Position numbers and translations under genes: made by a program
Notes under the pieces: generated by a model
What the model was told of the DNA's origin: nothing
Seen by the model: the letters and a program-made list of their open reading frames with translations, nothing else
The model's database searches: none
DNA from: Eledone cirrhosa
Lineage: Eukaryota
Direction of reading: 5' to 3'
DNA length: 64,000 nucleotides
Assembly (NCBI GenBank): GCA_964016885.1
Contig: OZ024765.1
Coordinates: 12,524,001 to 12,588,000, forward strand
In this document: positions 2,569 to 60,766 of the stretch, in pieces
Layout: every line of letters begins with the position of its first letter
Numbering within the stretch: the first letter of the stretch is position 1

Positions 2569-2664
2569 CTTTTTGTTCAGTTTCAGCCAGGTGCAAAAGC
2601 CTTTGCTGTCCTTGTATTGAAGGCCAAAAAACCAGATTTCCCGAAGTCCAATTGTTTTCACGAC
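2569..2664 (-). CDS. Moe: ERM gene coding exon, FERM F1 lobe ([32 protein letters not shown])
   Basis: 96-nt exon bounded by ctaattttag| and |gtaaga. It matches ERM residues 33-64 and ends in the K63/K64 pair of the PIP2-binding patch. The gene continues beyond position 1. Confidence 0.96.
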
Positions 2665-17945: not shown

Positions 17946-18029
17946 CTGGTCAAAAAGCTGTTTGCCTGTGGTGCTTGGCTGGATGGCAAATTCCAGCTCC
18001 GCATCCATCGTCTGGACGCGTACATTTAC
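17946..18029 (-). CDS. Moe: ERM gene coding exon, FERM F1 lobe ([28 protein letters not shown])
   Basis: 84-nt exon bounded by ttgtcttcag| and |gtaagt. The peptide is near-identical to ERM residues 5-32 (GKQLFDQV is ERM-type, whereas merlin has GKDLFDLV). Confidence 0.96.
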
Positions 18030-22815: not shown

Positions 22816-25800
22816 TAAATACACACATATATGCATAAATATATGCACACATAAATGCCACCTGGAGTGGGAGGAAAACATTGAGAGCAAATATTTAGAA
22901 CAAAATTCTTTGCATGAGGTGACCCAGATATAATGTGTCTCCCTGTCATATGACATTCTAGTTCATCACATCACAACCAACCTGTGTGGTGTGTATGTAT
23001 GTATGTGCTGATTAACTGGCTAGAAATAGTTACCAAATCTATCTCAAATCACACCCCTTTTAACCCTTTCAAAATGGAACCCGCTTCAAACAGTACCAGA
23101 TACTATGATAACATTGCTCACTTGTATAGCGTTCATAGTTATACTTAAACAGTCGAGGGCAACCTGGGGCCTGCGAAGCTTTCTGAATGGCTCACCTAAG
23201 TCACTTAAGTGAAATGTTTCTGATTTTTTTACCAACTTTTCAGTCATAATTTATCTTTCTATCATTTTTACGATCGAAGAAAACAACGAGTACAAATTCT
23301 GAAGAAACAAATCAAAACAACCCGAGTTACCACCCTTTTTTTAAAAAGTGGGCACGAATGTAAATTAGCGCTTGCGGCCGGCCCGCCTGATGATGATGAG
23401 CCATATCTCATGCGGCTCGCTTCTCGAAAAAAGTTACTCATGCCTGTACTAAAACCTTCCATCTTAATTCTTGATCTTCTTCGCCCACTTATTGCTGTTA
23501 GGGTTAGGGGCTAGAGTCCCCAGACACCCTTTCATGACCATATTTCTAATGAAAAACACTGCCTATGATTTTTCAAATAATTTTGAAAATACTAAAGAAT
23601 AATCTAGTCATAATTCTTGATACTGTTTAAATTTATTTCAAAGACATAGGCAGTGTTTTTCAAGAGAAATATTTTTTTCAAATCAGTTCAAATATACAAA
23701 AACATTTTTAAAACCACATTTAAAAACACACAACACCGACATACAATAAAAAGGCAGTTTACACAATGAAGCGACCACAATATCTAATACAAGATGCTTT
23801 TTGGTCTGCAGGCAATGAATGACAACAATAACAATGGGTTTTAACCCTTTAGCATTTAAACCAGTTGTATCCGGCCGGAATTCTCTCAACTCTTTCTATT
23901 GAAACAGGCCGTAACTGGCCACTCATACTGATGTTAAGGTATTGTTCTCAAAATAAATAACATTAAAATTTCATAGATTTCATATGTGAGATAAAGCCTT
24001 TACAATACAATATATATAGAGTAATGTAATTTGGTATGGGGTAAGTCTATTAAACTGACTCCAGGAGATATTTAACCCTTTAGTATTTACATTACTCTAT
24101 ATTTACCATTGTATTTTCACAGTAAAGGCTTTGATGGTATTTAATTTGAGAACAATACCATAACATCAGTATGAGTGGCTGGTTACAACTGGTTTGAAAA
24201 GAATGAAGTGAGAGAACTCTGACTGAATATGGCCAGTTTAAACGCTAAAGGGTTAAACTGACTCCGGGAAATATTTAAAGGCCTAAGTTGACTGTAGTTA
24301 GATTTAAAATCAGAAGAAATACTGCAGGACATTGTCCAACATTAACGACTCCGCCAATTATAATAATGGTTTTTAATTTAGGCAATACGCAATTAATTCC
24401 TGGGAGAGAGGAAAGTTGATTATATCTGGCACTTTATTTTAACGATCCCGAAAGGATGAAAAGCAAAACTGACCGTGGCAGGATTTGAATTGGATGGAGG
24501 ACATCAATTAAATTGACTCCAGTGCATTACTGGTACTTTTATTTTATCAACCCCGTAATAATAATAATAATGATTTCTAGTATAGGCACAAGGCCAGTAA
24601 TTTGGGGGGAGAGGGAAAAGTCAATTAGATTGACTCCAGTACGTTACTGGTGCCTTATTTTATCGTCCCTGTAAGGATGAAAGGTAAAGCTGACCTCAGC
24701 CGGATTTTAACTCAGAACGTAAAGGGCCACAACTATGCTGCAAAGCATGGTGTCTGACACTAATTCTGCCAATCGACTGCCCTAATAATAATAATAATAA
24801 TAATAATAATAGTTTATTTTTGGCACAAGGCCAACAATTACCCCAGTGTATTACTGGTACTTCATTTTATCAACCCCATAAGGATGAAAGGCAAAGTTAA
24901 TAATAGTAATAGCAACAATTAACACAACTTATACAACAAAGAACATATCTGGCAATGATGGTAAGGTAGGATAGGAAGCAAGAAACTAAAACGATGGGAT
25001 GGGTACATCAAATTTTTATCTTTTATTACAAAAATCACTAATTTCTTTGTGCTGTGTATGTGGAGGGGTTTTGTGGGGGATTTTTTTTTTTTTTGCAGAA
25101 GGTTGCTCAGTGTGTGCAATATGTCCTGACCTTAGATTGATTTTTGAAGAGATCCCAGGGAACTGCTTGAGACATAAAGTCATCAAGAGCATCTAAAATC
25201 TGTTTCGGAAAAAAAATTTTTTTTTTTTTTTCCAAATAAAGAAAAAAATGTTTAATGTTTAATTGTTTTAAAAAAAAAAAAATTATATATATATGTACAC
25301 ACACACACACACACACTATATAATATCAGAACAAAAAAAAAAAAAAAAAACAATGATATAAAAAGACTTTTTTAAATGTTGGAAACTTGAGAATGTTTTG
25401 GTTTATGAGAATGGACATAATATAAGTATGTCCAACCAACGCAAGCAATCAAAAGTATATAAAGTATATATTGTAAAATGTTAAATGATACACACAATAG
25501 AGAGAGAATGCTAATTTATATACACGAACCGAGGTCAAGGTCGTTGGAGGGGGAGATAAAGAGGGGTGGGTGGTTAGAGGAAGTGGTTGCCCACCTGCAA
25601 AGGATAAGTGGCAATAATGTTTCATTTAAGGAGATTGTTGGAGAGATGGGGCGACTGGACAGGAGATAGGAGATAGGGGGGGGGGGGGGGGGGGTCTGCC
25701 CAGCTGGAATGCAGGGAGGATCATGTGTTGTAACAGTATACAAGTTGAAGAGTATTAATATACAAATTTGTTAGTATATAAATATACTAGTATATATAGG

Positions 25801-30079: not shown

Positions 30080-30407
30080 TCATTTTACGTCTGCTTTTCC
30101 CTGCTTGCAAGGGTGGGACGGGAACTGATTCTGGCTTGATTTCTACAGCTGGATGCCCTTCCTAACACCAACCTCATTTACAGTGAGTGCTGGGTGCTTT
30201 TTTTTGCCGTGGCACCCCCACGACCACTCTGCAGTGGAACGATAGGGACCCCAGTCCCTATCATCTCATTTCTACAGCTGAGTAAACTGGAGCAATGTGA
30301 AATAAAGTGTCTTGCTCAAGGAAACACCACATCACCCGGTCTGAGAATTGAACTCACAATCTTTCGATTGCAAGGCCAATGCTCTAACCACTAAGCCATG
30401 TGCCTCC
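30080..30407 (-). mobile_element. tRNA-derived SINE-B, full length
   Basis: Reverse complement of the 57769-58108 copy, with high identity. Confidence 0.85.
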
Positions 30408-51134: not shown

Positions 51135-51490
51135 TTTACCAGCTTTTGGAGGTTTGTATTTCACATTTAGCCTGTGACTATTCCTAGCTTTAGAGGCCTG
51201 CATTTCACATCTGGCTCAGGCCTACTACCAGATTTGGAGGCCTACATTTCACATCTGGCTCAGGCCTACTACCAGATTTGGAGGCCTACATTTCACATCT
51301 GGCTCAGGCCTACTACCAGATTTGGAGGCCTACATTTCACATCTGGCTCAGGCCTACTACCAGATTTGGAGGCCTACATTTCACATCTGGTCTGGGTCTA
51401 CTACCAACTTTGGAAGCCTCCATTTCACATCTGGTCTGGGTTTACTACCAACTTTGGAAGCCTACATTTCACATCTGCCACAGGCCAGAT
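51135..51490. repeat. 44-bp minisatellite (~8 copies)
   Basis: Unit catttcacatctggctcaggcctactaccagatttggaggccta. Confidence 0.9.
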
Positions 51491-51766
51491 TTGAAATGCT
51501 GGCCTTCAAAGTTTAGTTTCAACTTTAAATAAAAATTCTTCAAGCTAGGGCCAAAATGTTTATAAACATACTTTTATATATATAGAGAGAGAGAATAAAA
51601 CAAAGAGGAAAAAACAAACAAAATATATAAACAAAATATATAAACAAACAAACAAAAATAAATAAACTCAATGATATGACAGACAAATGAAGAGTGATAT
51701 AAACTGAATAAAATAGTGAATATATTGGAACGGATGGAAACCTGGCAGATGGTAAAAGTTACTCAC

Positions 51767-51787
51767 CTCACCATGCCGAAATCGGAA
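51767..51787 (-). CDS. Candidate alternative 21-nt microexon of the ERM gene (FRFRHGE)
   Basis: Minus strand: tttttctgttccccctgctttaaaatttgctaatttttctctag|TTC CGA TTT CGG CAT GGT GAG|gtgagt. Good acceptor, branch-like ctaat, strong donor, phase 0/0, no stop codon. No transcript evidence is available. Confidence 0.5.
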
Positions 51788-51934
51788 CTAGAGAAAAATT
51801 AGCAAATTTTAAAGCAGGGGGAACAGAAAAAGACATTGAAACAATTTATAAACTAGCATAGCATAGACTTCAATTGATAAAACTCAAGACCACATTCACT
51901 CAGCCAATACTGCCAACCCATCAGCCTATCACCC

Positions 51935-52290
51935 TTAACCCTTTAGTATTTACATTACTCTATGTGGATTGGCAGTATCGGTAGAGGGTCGGACGCCATG
52001 CTTTCCAGCATAGTTACATCCCTTTACGATCTGAGTTCAAATCCCGCCGAGGTTGACTTTACCTTTCATCCTTACGGGGTCGATAAAATAAAGTACCAGT
52101 AATGCACTGGGTATTTGCTGGCCTTGTGCCTAAAGTAGAAACAATTATATTTTCACGCTTAATACTTTACCTCATGTTTATTTTGAGAATACCTTAACAT
52201 CAGTATGAACAGCTAGTTATGGCTGGTTTGAACAGAGAGAGGCGAGAGAATTCTGGCCGGATACGGCCGGTTTAAATGCTAAAGGGCTAA
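51935..52290. mobile_element. TTAA MITE with nested SINE-A (51964-52147)
   Basis: ttaaccctttagtatttacattactctat|GTGGATTGGC... and the MITE resumes after acaattat. Confidence 0.85.
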
Positions 52291-53213
52291 TAATAATAAT
52301 AATAATGATGATTTCTACTATAGGCACAAGGCCAGCAAAAAATTAAGGAAGGGGATGGGAAGGCCGATTAAATCGGCCCCAGTGCATTACTGGTACTTTA
52401 TTTTATCGACTGTAAGGATGACAGGCAAAGAGAGCCATAACTAAATACTGCAAAGCATTTTGTCCGACGTTCTACCGATTCTGCCAATCCACTAATAATA
52501 ATGGTTTTTGATTTAGTGTCAAGGCCAAGAATTTTGGGGGAGGGGGAAGTCAATTAAATCGACCCCAGTACATTACTGGTACTTTATTTTATTAACCCTG
52601 AGAAGATGAAAGGCAAAGCGAACCTCAGCCGGATCTAAACTCAGAACACCAAGGTATATTACTATGTTGCAAAGCATGGTGTCCGACGCTCTACCGATTC
52701 TGCTAATCCAGTGCCCTACCACCATTAATAATATTAATAATTATTTCTACTTTAGGCACAAGGCCAGCAATTTGAAGGGAGAAAGTCGATTAAAATCACT
52801 CCCAGTGCATCACTAGTACTTTATTTTATCAACCTCAGAAAGATAAAATAAAGTACCAGTCAAGTGCGGTGGAAGGGGATACAACTGACTTTCCCCTTCC
52901 CTCAAAATATTGCTGGCCATGCGTGCTTCAGTTAGAAACCATTATTTACATCCCACCGAGGTTAACTCTGCCATTCATCCTTACAGGGTCGATAAAATAA
53001 AGTACCAGTAATGCACTGGGGTAATTGCTGGCCTTGTGCCAAACGTAGAAATAATTATTTACAGTCCTTTATGATCCAAGTTCAAGTCCTGCTGAGGTCA
53101 ACTTTGCCTTTCATCCTTTTGGGGGTCAATTTGACTTTTCTCACCCCAAAATTATAGTCCTTGTACCTAAATGAATAAAAACTACATTGTTGTTGTTCTA
53201 ACACCCGCTTTCC

Positions 53214-53244
<31 letters not shown>

Positions 53245-53308
53245 GATAGATAAGTAAAATGACAGGAGGCCGGACTGGTGAAATTCCTTAAATGAATATC
53301 TATATGTG

Positions 53309-53361
<53 letters not shown>

Positions 53362-53651
53362 GGATGAAATGTTACTAGTTAAGAGACCAATACAACCACA
53401 TATTTAACTTCTTAAGTATTCTATATTTAAATGGAGAGAATGTAGATATCATTATAAAGATTAACTGCCCAACGGTTAAGCTTGGACAGTTTCAATAGCA
53501 TTTGCTGCCTGCTATTGGAAAGGTAGAAGCTTAACCATAGGGCAGAGCATCCTTGTAGTAATATCTATGCTATATAAATATGAATATTTCAAGTATTAAC
53601 GATCTCTTTTGTTTTTTAAAGTCAAATCAAAGAAAAGACTTTAAAGATATA

Positions 53652-53727
53652 TAGGGTGTTCCCAAAAATATATACATACTGATTAGAATGCTGTCAAAGT
53701 GTGTATACATTTTTGGGGGACACACTA
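53652..53727. mobile_element. Short palindromic Tc1/mariner-like MITE relic
   Basis: tagggtgttcccaaaaatatatacatact ... agtgtgtatacatttttgggggacacacta. Confidence 0.5.
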
Positions 53728-54073
53728 AATGCATCTAAATTATTTATTCAACAAAAGCAGACATGTTAGTTGATCCATATAAAATAATAATAGCAGCAAT
53801 GATACATAAAAAATAATTTACAAAAAAAAACTAAATACCAAAAATCCGGTTCTGGCTTGTCAGAGAACACAATGCATGATTCATACACTATGTTATATGT
53901 TGATAAAATATTTCAACTAAGTAACAAGAGAGGGCGGGGGCAGAGACACACACACAAGCAGACATTATATTAAAAAGCTAAAGAACAAAATGCCAAACAT
54001 TTTCTTCAATATCTATATGTACATACATGTTTGTATGTATGCATGTATGTATACATATATACATATATAAATA

Positions 54074-54435
54074 CAGTGTACCCCTTGGCATTCAGAGCCC
54101 TGGTTTTTCACAGTATTTTCCTTAGAGACTAACTAATAATTGATCATGGAAACCACTGTATATTTGCGGAAGCGTAAATATTTGTGATTTTTAATGGCTT
54201 TTTTCAAGGCAACATATATGTTTTAACACTAAATTAATAACAATATACTGTATTTGCTGGCCTATTGGACACCCCTTCACATAAGACGCTCCGCTCCCTC
54301 TTTGTTTTATAATTATAAATTACGTTTTATTTTGACGTTTATAGGCTTTTTATGGACCAGGTCCAATGTTCATGGTTTTTCACTCTTCACGGATGCTCTA
54401 GGAACATAACCCCCATGAATACTGGGGGACTACTG
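54074..54435. mobile_element. Tigger/pogo-like MITE with TA TSD
   Basis: ta|CAGTGTACCCCTTGGCATTCA ... TGAATACTGGGGGACTACTG|ta. Confidence 0.65.
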
Positions 54436-55041
54436 TATATAAATGTGTGATGTCAGGTTGCTCTTCAGTGCGACTGGTAACATGTAATCCAGTACAACCT
54501 GTGCAGGATTGGGTCATCGGCAACTAAACCGACAACCCCACCAAGCTTGCTAGGTGAGGAGGGTGATTTAGAATACCCTATGGGATGAAAGACAAAACCT
54601 GTCAGATGGCGGAGGAACTCAGGAGAGTCAACGGCCATCCAATAAAGTTTTTTTTTTTTTTTTGAAGAGTAAGAGAATCCTAGTCTTCATTAAGACATCT
54701 CTCTAGGAGAAGGCCACTATGATATAAAACTTGCAACTTTGTTTGCATCCAATTATGTTGTCCAGTTCTTTTTGGGCAAATGCATTCTGTAACTAGTTAT
54801 ACACTTACATAACACACACACACACACATATATATGTAAACGTGGTTGGTGTTAGGAAGGGCATCCAGTTGTAAAAATCCTAGCCAAAATACAGTTCTGT
54901 CTGAGCCCTGGTCAGGCTTGTATCATGACATGGGTGACTTCAATAACCCATGCAAGCATACAAAAATAGACGTTAACCGGTGATGCTATATATATATATT
55001 TTGGCTAGGATTTTTACAACTGGATGCCCTTCCTAACACCA

Positions 55042-55089
<48 letters not shown>

Positions 55090-55220
55090 GATAAATCTAC
55101 CAAGAGTATATATATATATATATATATAACACATATATATCCTAGAAACGATCGTTAAATAATGAACTTTTTTTGTTTAATATAAGGAACTGTTTCATTG
55201 TTTTATTCATTATTTTTTTA

Positions 55221-55265
<45 letters not shown>

Positions 55266-55328
55266 GTAGAACACTGGAAGGTAATATCCGTAGTGGTAGA
55301 GCACTCAGTCCATGGAACGAGTTAGGTG

Positions 55329-55433
55329 GAAGTGGTTACACAACAGTTAGTTCACCATACCGAGAACAATTGTTTCACCTTAGCGGATCCGAGCTGAGGA
55401 TCCGCTAAGGTGAAACAACTGTAGTGTAACCAC

Positions 55434-55436
<3 letters not shown>
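55329..55436. repeat. Foldback with a perfect 21-bp stem between (TA)n tracts
   Basis: ttgtttcaccttagcggatcc-gagctga-ggatccgctaaggtgaaacaa (55370-55418). Outer arm gaagtggttacac / gtgtaaccacttc. Confidence 0.85.
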
Positions 55437-55490
<54 letters not shown>

Positions 55491-55560
55491 TCCGTGTGTC
55501 AAGAGTGCTCTACCAGCTACAAGAAGCTGGGGGTGTATATCCTGTGTTATTGATGGGTGC

Positions 55561-55738
55561 AAGAAAAAGTACTCAATACCAAAGTAGAGTATATATATTC
55601 ATTAATTATGACCAAGCAGTGAGCCAACACCCTCACAGAATCATTAGACAAGTCTTGTGAAACTCCAAAGTAACCAGGCTCGCTGCTTAGCCATAATAAA
55701 TGAATATTTACACTGCTTCAGTATTGAGTACTCTTTCT
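55561..55738. repeat. Imperfect foldback, ~65-bp arms
   Basis: agtactcaatac..atattcatt..aagcagtgagcc pairs with ggctcgctgctt..aatgaatat..gtattgagtact. Confidence 0.8.
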
Positions 55739-56081
55739 CACATCTGTCAAAAACAGATATATCATAATTATTTAACGTCCACAAGGACAGTGGATTGGCA
55801 GTATCGGTAGAGGGTCGGACGCCATGCTTTGCAACAAAGAGTTATGGCCCTTTGTGGTCTGAGTTCAAATCCCGCTGAGGTTAACTTTGCCTTTCATCCT
55901 TACAGGGCTGATAAAATAAACTACCGGTAATGCACTGGGATAATTGCTGGCCTTGTGCCAAAAGTAGAAACAATTATTTAACGTCCACTTTCCACATTGG
56001 CATGGGTTAGACAAGTTGTCCCATTTGAGGCAAGTTGGTTCAGGTGACCATGTCTTAGTCATACAGAACTGAGTCAGACAG

Positions 56082-56146
<65 letters not shown>

Positions 56147-56244
56147 TTATATAAATGCATGTGTGCTTAAGTGTGTGTGGGTTTATAAATAAACTGCCAA
56201 AGTATACTAATAACGAAAACAAATCAATAATCTATATATATATT

Positions 56245-56304
<60 letters not shown>

Positions 56305-56750
56305 AAACATTTTCATGTTCTGACATCCATCCAAATACACATGCAACCATTTGATAAAGTCAAAGTTAAGCCAAACGAACAAAGGTTAAGGATAATTACA
56401 ATCATGGATTATTTATATAACTAAATTACAAAATTAATTAAAAAACGAAAATTCTTCTACAAACATAAGATGAGGACATTTCAGAAATGAAATCTTGAAA
56501 GGGGTCTAGTGGTTAAGGTGTTGGGCTTCTGATCATAATGTTGAGGGTTGAATTCCAAGGCTAGACTGCATGGTGTGCCCTTGAGCAAAACATTTTATTT
56601 TATGTTACTCCAGTCCACTCAACTGGAAGTTTACACTGTGGCAGTCAAGAATCTTATCCAGGGGAAATTTTGTACTCCGTTACCCAATGCTAATGAAACT
56701 GAGACAACCTCACTGCTTATGACAGTATATATTTCACTGGCTATCATGAG

Positions 56751-56935
56751 GTGGATTGGCAGTATCGGTAGAGGGTCGGATGCCATGCTTTCCAGCATAG
56801 TTACGTCCCTTAACGATCTGACTTCAAATCCCGCCGAGGTTGACTTTGCCTTTCATCCGTACGGGGTCGATAAAATAAAGTACCAGTAATGCACTGGAAA
56901 ATTGCTGGCCTTGCGCCAAAAAGTAGAAACAATTA
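56751..56935 (+). mobile_element. tRNA-derived SINE-A, full length
   Basis: A/B boxes, core gcctttcatcc..ggggtcgataaaataaagtaccag, tail gtagaaacaattat. Also at 55791-55978 (+) and at 22148-22333, 48805-49012 and 24570-24783 (-). Confidence 0.85.
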
Positions 56936-57768
56936 TCATTTAAACTGGCCAGAATTCTCTCACCTCTTTCTGTTCAAACTGGCCATAATTGGTCCCTCAT
57001 GACAACATTACGGTATTGTTCTCAAAATAAATATCAAAATCTCATAGATTCGATATTATGTGAGATAAAGCCTTTACCGTGAAAATACAATAGTAAATAT
57101 AGGTTAATTATCATCGCCATCATTGTTTAATGTCCATTTTCCACACTACATGGGTTAGATGTAAATGCTAAAGGGTTAATGTCAATTTTTCCCCTGCTAA
57201 AACTTCATTACTGTATTTCTACTGAAAATACTACTGCTTCCTTTGTACTCAAATCAATTTTAAAATTAAACCAAAAATTTCATTAAAGAGCTGGGCAGAA
57301 CAAATGCTGCAAAACAATTTCGTCCACTGCTCTCATGTTTCTGCAAAAGCCACCACCCTTTCAATTTTCAAAATTAATTGTTTCTGATTTAGGCTTAAGG
57401 CCAACAATTTGGGGAAAGGGGAAAGTTGAGTCAATCTACCCCAGTGCATCACTGGTACTTTATTTTAACCATGTAAGGATGAAAGACAAAGATTTTGTGT
57501 CAGGACATAAAGGGCCAGAACGAGCATGAAGCATGGCGCGTGATGCTCTACCGACACTGCAAATCCACCACTCTAATAACATGACATTTTCAACACACAA
57601 CCCTTGTCCTAACCCACCCTGCTCCCCACCCACACCACCAAACAGAGATTGGTTAAATACCAGACTGAAAACAACATCTGGAATGTGAACATCATTATCA
57701 TTTTACATCCGCTTGCTTGGGTTGGACTATGCATGTTAAATTGTGCTTTCCATAATTATTTTCCTGAT

Positions 57769-58108
57769 TGGAGGCACATGGCTTAGTGGTTAGAGCATTG
57801 GCCTTGCAATCGAAAGGTTGTGAGTTCAATTCTCAGACCGGGTGATGTGTTGTTTCCTTGAGCAAGACACTTTATTTCACATTGCTCCAGTTTACTCAGC
57901 TGTAGAAATGAGATGATAGGGACTGGGGTCCCTATCATTCCACTGCAAAGTGGTCGTGGAGGTGCCACGGCAAAACAGCACCCAGCACTCACTGTAAATG
58001 AGGTTGGTGTTAGGAAGGGCATCCAGCTGTAGAAATCACGCCAGAATCAGTTCCCGTCCCACCCTTGCAAGCAGGGAAAAACGGACGTAAAATGAGATGA
58101 TGATGATG
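57769..58108 (+). mobile_element. tRNA-derived SINE-B, full length (~340 bp)
   Basis: Head ggaggcacaTGGCTTAGTGGttagagc..GAGTTCAATTCTC, core ccttgagcaagacact, tail cccgtcccacccttgcaagcagggaaaa..acgtaaaatga(gat)n. Confidence 0.9.
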
Positions 58109-58609
58109 CTGCTGCTGCTCTTGTCAGCTGGGTGCATTTTATGTCAACCCCAGTACTTGACTGGTATGCTATTTTATCAACCCCGGAAGAATGTAAAGCA
58201 GAATTAACTTCAGTGAGATTTGAACTCAGAAAGTAAAGAGCCAGAGCTAGTACTATGTACGGAAAAAGAAGAGGTCGAATACACTAAAGAATTAGTAATA
58301 TAAAGTCTGACAATGGCATACAAGGACCCTTAACTCTCCATGGGGTCTGTAAAGACACTCTACTGACTGATATAAAAATGTCTTAGGCATTTAAATGGGG
58401 TGGAGCTCAACCAATCCTCTCAGCCAATTTCTTCCAGAGAAACAAAGAACCGAGAGTGTAGAGAGTCTCAATGATTAACCCAGAGCTTTCTATCCAGCAT
58501 TCTAACAACTGTCAATTTACTGTCTTCATATAATCATACATAGAGACAAACATGAACTGAAGGAGCACTCAATATACATACTCAAATATTTTAAGACCAT
58601 TTTGCCTGC

Positions 58610-59138
58610 TAAAGTAAGGGTTAACTTTGTGGGCCTCATAATAGGCTTACTTATACTCAAAGTAAGGGTTAACCTTGTGGGCCTCATAATAGGCTTACTT
58701 ATACTCAAAGTAAGGGTTAACTTTGTGGGCCTCATTATAGGCTTACTTATACTCAAAGTAAGGGTTAACTTTGTGGGCCTCATTATAGGCTTAGTTATAC
58801 TCAAAGTAAAGGTTAACCTTGTGGGCCTCATAATAGGCTTACTTATACTCAAAGTAAAGGTTAACCTTGTGGGCCTCATAATAGGCTTACTTATACTCAA
58901 AGTAAGGGTTAACTTTGTGGGCCTCATTATAGGCTTACTTATACTCAAAGTAAGGGTTAACTTTGTGGGCCTCATAATAGGCTTACTTATATTCAAAGTA
59001 AGGGTTAACCTTGTGGGCCTCATAAATAGGCTTACTTATACTCAAAGTAAGGGTTAACCTTGTGGGCCTCATAATAGGCTTACTTATACTCAAAGTAAGG
59101 GTTAACCTTGTGGGCCTCATAATAGGCTTACTTATACT
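58610..59138. repeat. 48-bp minisatellite (~11 copies)
   Basis: Unit caaagtaagggttaaccttgtgggcctcataataggcttacttatact. Confidence 0.95.
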
Positions 59139-59638
59139 CATAACGATTTCTAATTTAGGCAAAAGGCCAGCAAATATATATTTTTTTGGGGGGAGGGGGG
59201 GATTAAATCGACCCCAGTGCATCACTGGTGCTTTATTCCAACAACCCCGTAAGGATGAAAGGCAAAGCTAACCTAGTGGGATTTAAACTCAGATCGTAAG
59301 GGGTCATAATTATACTGCAAAGTATGGTGTTCAACGCTTTACCTATACTGCCAATCCATACTACTCATAACGTGGGTTATTTTGGTGGTAATGTTTTAAA
59401 GCCAGATTGGCACAACCCTTTCAGTTACCTCTTACAACACACCAGTGATACTGTGTACCTCTCTTTTCCCAGATCCAACCAGATACACACAAATATATAT
59501 TGCAGAGTAAATGTTTTATTTTCCAATAGCAATGTTTTAAAGCTGTATAAACTCTTTCAGTCCTCATGACAAGCAGGGATGATACAGTGTTTCTATTCCA
59601 AACAAATATATAAGATATAAATATTTTATTTTCTAAAG

Positions 59639-59674
<36 letters not shown>

Positions 59675-60237
59675 GTAACTTTTAAGTTTCACCTGTAAGT
59701 TCACACACAGTAAGAGAAAATGAATTTACAGTTAAAACTTCAAACAAAATCACTGTCACTTTGAAAAAACTTAAACCTACAAGATTACTTTAACGGGCGG
59801 TGCCAAGAAAGGCAGCTGTACATAAAACATTGCTTGGAAAAAGATCCCTTGATGAGTATGAAACCTATCATGAGGGCCTTCACAAGCCCATCCCACACTT
59901 TAACAAAGCCTTAAAACACTTGTATACATAATTAAAATTAGGATAATTGATAAATAAACAAAAAGGAGAAACCTTAAAAAAATTTTTTTTTTAAATAAAA
60001 AGACAAATGAAAAACACAGAACTCAAAGGTCCTCAGTCATTGAAATGGACTTAGGCAGTTTCGACCCCTACCAACAGTACTGCTGGAGTCACAGTGTCTG
60101 ACAAACAAGCCAAAGTATTGTCCAGAGAGTAAAAGACAAGACAAAACAACTTACAGCAATTAAGCCATAACAGGTATACATGAAATTTTATGTGACAACT
60201 ACATATAATATAACTTAAAAAATGGAGTTTAACTTAC

Positions 60238-60249
60238 CGGTTTTGGCAT
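60238..60249 (-). CDS. Moe: ERM (moesin/ezrin/radixin-like) gene, first coding exon, encodes MPKP
   Basis: Minus strand reads ccaaccATG CCA AAA CCG|gtaagt, with A at -3 and a canonical donor at phase 0. MPKP followed by an intron matches the known ezrin/radixin exon structure and joins in frame to VNVRV at 18029. Confidence 0.9.
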
Positions 60250-60355
60250 GGTTGGTAGTGGTAAGGAATATTAATATCCAATTTTTCTTTGATATATTTA
60301 TATGTATCCTACTTCTCTATCTAGAAACACGGATTCCAGTAAATGAAATCAAGTT
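60250..60355 (-). other. 5' UTR part of the ERM start-codon exon
   Basis: Polypyrimidine tract and acceptor on the minus strand (tttttttcccctcttaattttttacag|aac, AG at 60356-60357). This implies a further upstream non-coding exon. Confidence 0.6.
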
Positions 60356-60460
60356 CTGTAAAAAATTAAGAGGGGAAAAAAAATTAATTACAACATAAAA
60401 CAATTCAAATTAAATTTAAAATTATGATGGAAGATTTTTAAATAAATATAAACACTGTAA

Positions 60461-60766
60461 GGAGGCACATGGCTTAGTGGTTAGAGCATTGGCCTTGCAA
60501 TTGAAAGGTTGCGAGTTCAATCTCAGACCGGGTGGTGTGTTGTTTCCTTGAGCAAGACACTTTATTTCACATTGCTCTAGTTTACTCAGCTGTAGAAATG
60601 AGATGATAGGGACTGGGTCCCTATCATTCCATTGCAAAAAAAGCACCCAGCACTCACTGTAAATGAGGTTGGTGTTAGGAAGGGCATCCAGCTGTAGAAA
60701 TCAAGCCAGAATCAGTTCCCGTCCCACCCTTGCAAGCAGGGAAAAGCGGGCGTAAAATGACGATGA
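60461..60766 (+). mobile_element. SINE-B copy
   Basis: High identity to the 57769 copy, with a small internal deletion. Confidence 0.85.

Follow-up and report, generated by a model that had tools for sequence, protein, structure and literature searches.

In the window analysed here, 64,000 nucleotides (nt) of Eledone cirrhosa DNA (G000:C26:12524001-12588000, from a genome of 3.0 Gb), the minus strand carries the ERM (moesin) gene, and a 21 nt segment in the intron that follows the start-carrying exon of this gene is a real microexon, already publicly annotated as optional in two Octopus species. Its antisense relation to the start of the same gene is likewise real and is unusual. The reading favoured here, tentatively and at slightly less than an even chance, is that this is a protein-tuning octopod ERM microexon encoding a basic-aromatic N-terminal peptide, and that the hairpin predicted between it and the start codon would affect initiation modestly at most; the weights given to this and to the other readings are judgements and were not computed. 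The original prediction, of an AUG-sequestering hairpin or an editing switch, is borne out in part, in that the microexon and the predicted hairpin stand and the editing switch has no support.

The exon with the start codon (60238..60355; features are on the minus strand unless otherwise stated) has 106 nt of 5' untranslated region (UTR), an ATG at 60249-60247, codons for MPKP, and a donor GTAAGT from 60237, its 5' boundary being placed by the acceptor TTTTTACAG. Cephalopod ERM proteins also begin MPKP, and a covering contig without other letters was obtained over 60147-60446 in 3/3 runs. The microexon (51767..51787) is preceded by TAG and followed by the donor GTGAGT (51761..51766) and encodes FRFRHGE in frame, so that it has the length (at most 27 nt), the AG and GT flanks and the preserved frame of an alternative microexon. 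FRFRHGE lies directly after MPKP in O. sinensis XP_029652744.1 and in O. vulgaris CAI9741825.1 and CAI9741828.1 (together P0124, P0125, and P0128), and the microexon is unique in the genome. The microexon that had been proposed from the letters is thus supported by its splice-site flanks, its frame and public annotation in two species.

The proteins compared are the 22 cephalopod ERM proteins listed, which come from five clusters and include 17 that begin MPKP. FRFRHGE is present at 7/7 residues in 3/22. Among the MPKP starters, 3 have FRFRHGE, 6 have an insert of 23 or 25 residues, and 8 have neither, and isoforms with and without the microexon both exist among the annotated proteins of O. 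sinensis and O. vulgaris. The FRFRHGE insert is absent from 7 squid/cuttlefish-type cluster members, 2 Argonauta and 3 O. bimaculoides proteins, which are too few to date the exon. A second alternative exon in the same intron (25131..25199; 69 nt, 23 residues) is 16/23 identical to the O. sinensis insert; it has orthologues in three Octopus species and a 25-residue form in the squid/cuttlefish-type protein P0134.

The acceptor region of the microexon (51788..51854) has TGC at -17 and -29, CTAAT at -15, a pyrimidine tract, and its nearest upstream AG at -67. The marks of eMIC-dependent exons, as given in the accessible part of 10.1101/2021.02.24.432780, are UGC near the acceptor, an AG exclusion zone, a pyrimidine tract, and CUAAY, and every sequence feature of an SRRM4/eMIC-type neural microexon is found here; the four other acceptors examined all lack TGC within 60 nt. 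This would suggest neural control of the SRRM4/eMIC type, and the microexon is presumably included in transcripts of E. cirrhosa. A PF15230 search for the eMIC factor was uninformative, with no match in this genome nor in any control genome. There is also a possible weaker donor, ATG|GTGAGG, inside the microexon (51766-51774), use of which would give a 16 nt frame-shifting exon.

It could be argued that in E. cirrhosa the segment is no longer spliced in and is a silent relic. This is very improbable, as the frame and splice sites are intact and the peptide is 7/7 identical, compared with a summed identity of about 82% to the O. sinensis ERM for the whole protein (approximate, since some pieces extend into introns) and 16/23 for the sister exon. 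A run search with the 8.75 kb stretch returned no RNA run among those listed, but so long a query may have hidden them, and expression cannot be judged from it. The spliced-junction sequence had 0 matches in the metagenome scan; the genomic pattern had 5 there, none octopus-like by context, which were taken as chance. A literature search that left subscription papers mostly uncovered found no paper on the microexon or its pairing, and the term ERM is absent from the accessible part of 10.64898/2026.09.05.749416.

On the favoured reading, the main job of the microexon would be to add FRFRHGE to the N-terminal tail of ERM. P0125 was modelled with AlphaFold from a 40-row alignment (mean predicted local distance difference test score, pLDDT, of 67.5); in this model, residues 1-11 are coil, residues 1-9 have pLDDT under 50, and the first strand begins at 12, from which the insert should not disturb the FERM fold. 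The peptide may serve to bind a membrane or a partner. At the same junction, the ERMs of other animals have inserts in which aromatic and basic residues are abundant (P0036, P0046, P0078, P0149, P0266), these being from one nematode and four little-annotated animal ERMs, some of which may be annotation artefacts; the exon would therefore have a reason to persist without the stem. These inserts are 12-34 residues long, and several end in F/W-F-K-K/R-x-x-K, which recalls the end of the cephalopod 23-residue insert.

The complementarity itself lies where it had been reported. The plus strand at 51770-51785 differs at 2/16 positions from the minus-strand start region 60252-60237, such that the predicted duplex has a 5' arm (60237..60252) made up of ACC, the AUG, codons 2-4, and the first intron base, and a 3' arm (51770..51785) that is 14/16 complementary to it, with 8450 nt measured between the arms. 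Folding of the spliced 5' region reproduces the hairpin as drawn, with 13 pairs, two A-C mismatches (A60244-C51778 and C60240-A51782, both As being third codon positions, as claimed), and a UUC loop, and four further pairs form with the next exon. The sixteenth pair uses the first G of the intron (60237) and is therefore available only in pre-mRNA. The predicted stem energy falls from -18 kcal/mol at 37 °C to -28 kcal/mol at 12 °C, 62/5000 shuffled microexons fold as stably, and with the microexon included the predicted pairing probability is near 1 over -3..+5. The hairpin that buries the AUG stands as a prediction. In the same region, a competing pairing is predicted between CUUACC in the 5' UTR and GGUAAG at the donor of the same exon, which would leave the AUG in the loop (60215-60290; z = -2.4, 5/200 shuffles).

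The two peptides by themselves account for most of the pairing. Across 2304 synonymous recodings, weighted by the gene's own codon usage (535 codons), neutral codons for both peptides most often give 10-11 of the 15 pairs. Of these recodings, 7% reach the stability of the actual fold, and in a local model 24% bury the AUG as effectively. Codon choice for pairing is only marginally better than neutral, which is suggestive at best. Six coding pairs are fixed by both peptides, and a partial stem should therefore also be present in O. sinensis and O. vulgaris. On the favoured reading, the complementarity would stem from the origin of the exon, as a short inverted copy of the end of the upstream exon, as a repeat relic, or by chance, and would persist because both peptides are kept.

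Published hairpins give some indication of how large an effect on translation is to be expected. In the accessible part of 10.1101/2021.12.29.474417, hairpins of -30 kcal/mol placed 50-60 nt from the cap gave no inhibition in extract or COS cells, and hairpins of -61 kcal/mol inhibit translation; these, like the other published hairpins compared here, lie upstream of the AUG. The distance from the cap to the microexon stem is 100 nt or more. A modest effect on translation is plausible in a cold-water animal, and the mammalian data give no reason to expect a strong block.

The chance of a 14/16 match, roughly put at 1% in the original prediction, is 0.6% by composition over the 42,208 nt intron and about 1.6% empirically, from the genome-wide site count given below. 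All of these match probabilities are post hoc and the match was chosen from a very large scan, so that chance may still account for it. As the exon is real, the relevant chance is smaller than this intron-wide figure, and this low single-exon chance is one of several results that weigh against the protein-level reading: a random 21 nt exon would have 13/15 complementarity to either flanking exon at about 1.5e-3, and complementarity covering the AUG at about 4e-5. Only 3.4% of codon-weighted recodings reach 13 pairs. At -24.1 kcal/mol, the microexon is the first-ranked intron partner of the donor region -20..+6, and it is first of 54 exon-like segments in occlusion of the AUG, though narrowly (6.3 vs 5.9). 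In yeast, 60S joining is reduced from -16.5 kcal/mol (10.1101/2021.12.29.474417, in the part accessible), and a stem of -15.8 kcal/mol near the AUG caused a loss of over 99% according to the available text of PMC3765126.

It is possible, with a clearly lower probability than that given to the protein-level reading, that the stem is kept by selection and that microexon inclusion, besides altering the N-terminus, damps initiation at the main AUG, coupling isoform to dose. The predicted cost of opening -3..+4 at 37 °C is 0.9 kcal/mol on skipping, 0.4 with the 69 nt exon, and 9.0 with the microexon, and at 12 °C it is 1.1 on skipping and 11.8 with the microexon. This jump, seen with the microexon and not with the 69 nt exon, speaks for such a damper, which would be stronger in cold water. 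The 13/15 pairs, in the top 3.4% of recodings, the low single-exon chance of the match, and the partial stem that the six peptide-fixed pairs imply for the two Octopus species also speak for it. Ribosomes passing the first AUG would meet an out-of-frame AUG in the microexon (51772..51774), which is there because CAUG is its own reverse complement; it is in good context (G at -3 and +4), is ahead of the in-frame Met12, and reads M-V-R-stop once joined to the next exon. Against a damper, the AUG is occluded equally by 24% of the synonymous recodings, and the stem is far from the cap and, by the published sources as accessible, no stronger than or close to what mammalian scanning tolerates. The wider proposal, that the microexon is the antisense of its own start site and that its inclusion locks the AUG in a structure that cold would stabilise and ADAR might tune, followed by a decoy AUG, is held to be unlikely to the same degree. 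If true, a dual-coded microexon would let splicing set isoform and dose in one step.

The rarity of the match also has to be seen against the genome. Within 2 mismatches of the 16-mer there are 2311 sites on both strands of the 3.0 Gb, compared with 199 for the reversed control, a background about 12-fold over control; much of the excess is likely to be due to this abundant interspersed repeat, which has 36 copies in about 197 kb, or about one per 5 kb. The start-region 16-mer has a second antisense match of 14/16 at G000:C26:12515599-12515614 (minus strand, L006), in a downstream ERM intron and inside a copy of the repeat. The repeat variant that gives it has 54 exact copies and matches the microexon core at 14/16 positions. 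Similarity to the repeat copies, or to the inverted exon, does not extend into the flanks, where 394 and 403 of 500 flank shuffles, respectively, score equally, and a profile built from 44 repeat copies has no match on the microexon region. The core of the repeat is GCTGGATGCCCTTCC, with examples in the window at 60692, 58027, and 44272 (minus strand) and at 30148 and 37426 (plus strand), and resembles the core of a short interspersed nuclear element. Complex tandem repeats flank the microexon in the intron, at 58611-59140 (48 bp x 11) and 51189-51486 (44 bp x 6.8).

The pairing might instead act before splicing is complete. An unlikely explanation is that, in the pre-mRNA or a half-spliced intermediate, the upstream donor or the microexon is hidden by the pairing, which would thereby control inclusion, the order of splicing, or exclusivity with the 69 nt exon. 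The microexon is the most stable intronic partner not only of the donor region, as given above, but also of the 16-mer (-18.8 kcal/mol), and both inserts together are found in 0/17 of the annotated MPKP-starting cephalopod proteins. Seventeen annotated proteins are too few to show exclusivity, however, and for the last 30 nt of the exon the microexon ranks only twelfth, 11 other intron sites pairing as well or better. Both arms, which are separated by 8.45 kb, also face competition from local hairpins. Extension of the duplex beyond its core is no better than in shuffles (847 of 1500 over the microexon donor, and 614 of 1500). The proposal that the duplex bridges the pre-mRNA, bringing the exon donor next to the microexon acceptor, has the rank of the microexon as intronic partner in its favour, but the duplex would cover both the last exonic bases of the donor and the microexon. 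A local hairpin between the microexon and the intron downstream, which encloses the microexon donor (51730-51787; -14 kcal/mol, z = -0.44), was not above shuffles.

Editing of A60244 and A51782 to inosine, which would close both mismatches and tighten the stem without recoding, is improbable. A60244, the third base of Pro2, is opposite C51778 in the context C-A-A, and A51782, the third base of an Arg codon, is opposite C60240 in the context G-A-U. The duplex is short, 15-19 bp with a 3 nt loop, and A51782 is two pairs from that loop with a G on its 5' side, a neighbour that ADAR disfavours. Both mismatches are A-C, the favoured setting in the accessible part of PMC12266145, and closing them would take the stem from -18 to between -27 (A-U stand-in) and -31 kcal/mol (G-C stand-in); two transitions between inverted copies, however, always give A-C or G-U oppositions, and two A-C mismatches are therefore not rare. 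A51782 has U at +1, which is linked to higher editing in coleoids, but A60244 has A at +1, where G or U accompanies higher coleoid editing (PMC7703385, in the text available for both statements). Octopus editing is mostly in introns and 3' UTRs, as far as the accessible part of PMC9699675 describes it. Three runs, all from one sample, behave as DNA over 59700-60600 and have no other letter at 60244. Moesin, radixin, and ezrin were not found in the accessible supplements of PMC8382921, PMC4384741, PMC9068888, and PMC9699675, which are small files (4-65 thousand characters) and are unlikely to be complete site tables.

Further along the gene, the constitutive exon at 17946..18029 begins the FERM F1 lobe and has radixin, ezrin, and moesin structures as its best solved relatives; the next constitutive exon is at 2569..2664, and the remainder is in L006-L008. 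Residues 5 to 582 of the cephalopod ERM are tiled by 12 exon pieces from the window and these loci, so that the FERM domain, helical linker, and ERM C-terminal domain are found in one gene, and Argonauta and Octopus supply the closest proteins. According to the accessible part of PMC6515277, the general ERM gene is single in invertebrates. At L008:5930 (minus strand), the last coding codon runs into GT-AAG after the stop frame, and Octopus ERM proteins end in either EAF or EALN, which points to alternative C-terminal splicing. Elsewhere, a 320-codon open frame at L012:4576-5535 (minus strand) resembles, by eye, a reverse-transcriptase fragment of a retroelement without long terminal repeats.

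If the stem is functional, a coding microexon would here control, by way of RNA structure, how the mRNA that contains it is translated, and in a compact form. The usual reading of microexons is at the protein level alone, and a functional stem would justify a genome-wide look for exons that are antisense to their neighbours. Should the stem prove incidental, the case reduces to an annotated octopod microexon that belongs with several other aromatic-basic inserts found at this ERM junction in various animals, and that may have arisen as an exon through local inversion.

Among known systems, the SRRM3/4 (nSR100)/eMIC neural microexons are similar in that this exon is 21 nt long and frame-preserving, with UGC, an AG-free stretch, a pyrimidine tract, and CUAAY (10.1101/2021.02.24.432780). 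It differs from them in that CUAAY is only 15 nt from the exon and in its complementarity to the upstream exon, which is not among the features described in the accessible part of that source. Octopus moesin isoform X3 (XP_029652744.1; CAI9741825.1 and CAI9741828.1 in O. vulgaris) has the same FRFRHGE insert after MPKP, but it is known from annotation records, and only the six peptide-forced pairs can be derived there. The start-proximal hairpins that limit eukaryotic initiation are comparable in that a stem of -13 to -18 kcal/mol is at the initiation site; the published constructs, as far as their accessible descriptions go, are fixed and upstream of the AUG, whereas the microexon stem includes the AUG, has a coding 3' arm, and is present in one splice isoform only. 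RNA structures are known to mask exons or compete in alternative splicing, as with the Dscam docking sites and, reportedly, MAG exon 12. The pairing described here similarly overlaps a 5' splice site, but both of its arms are coding exon sequence, so that the mature mRNA retains it. Finally, the editing-complementary sequences of ADAR substrates, such as that of the GluA2 Q/R site, share with it a long-range exon pairing with A-C mismatches, but here the partner is another exon, the duplex is short, and the candidate edits are synonymous.

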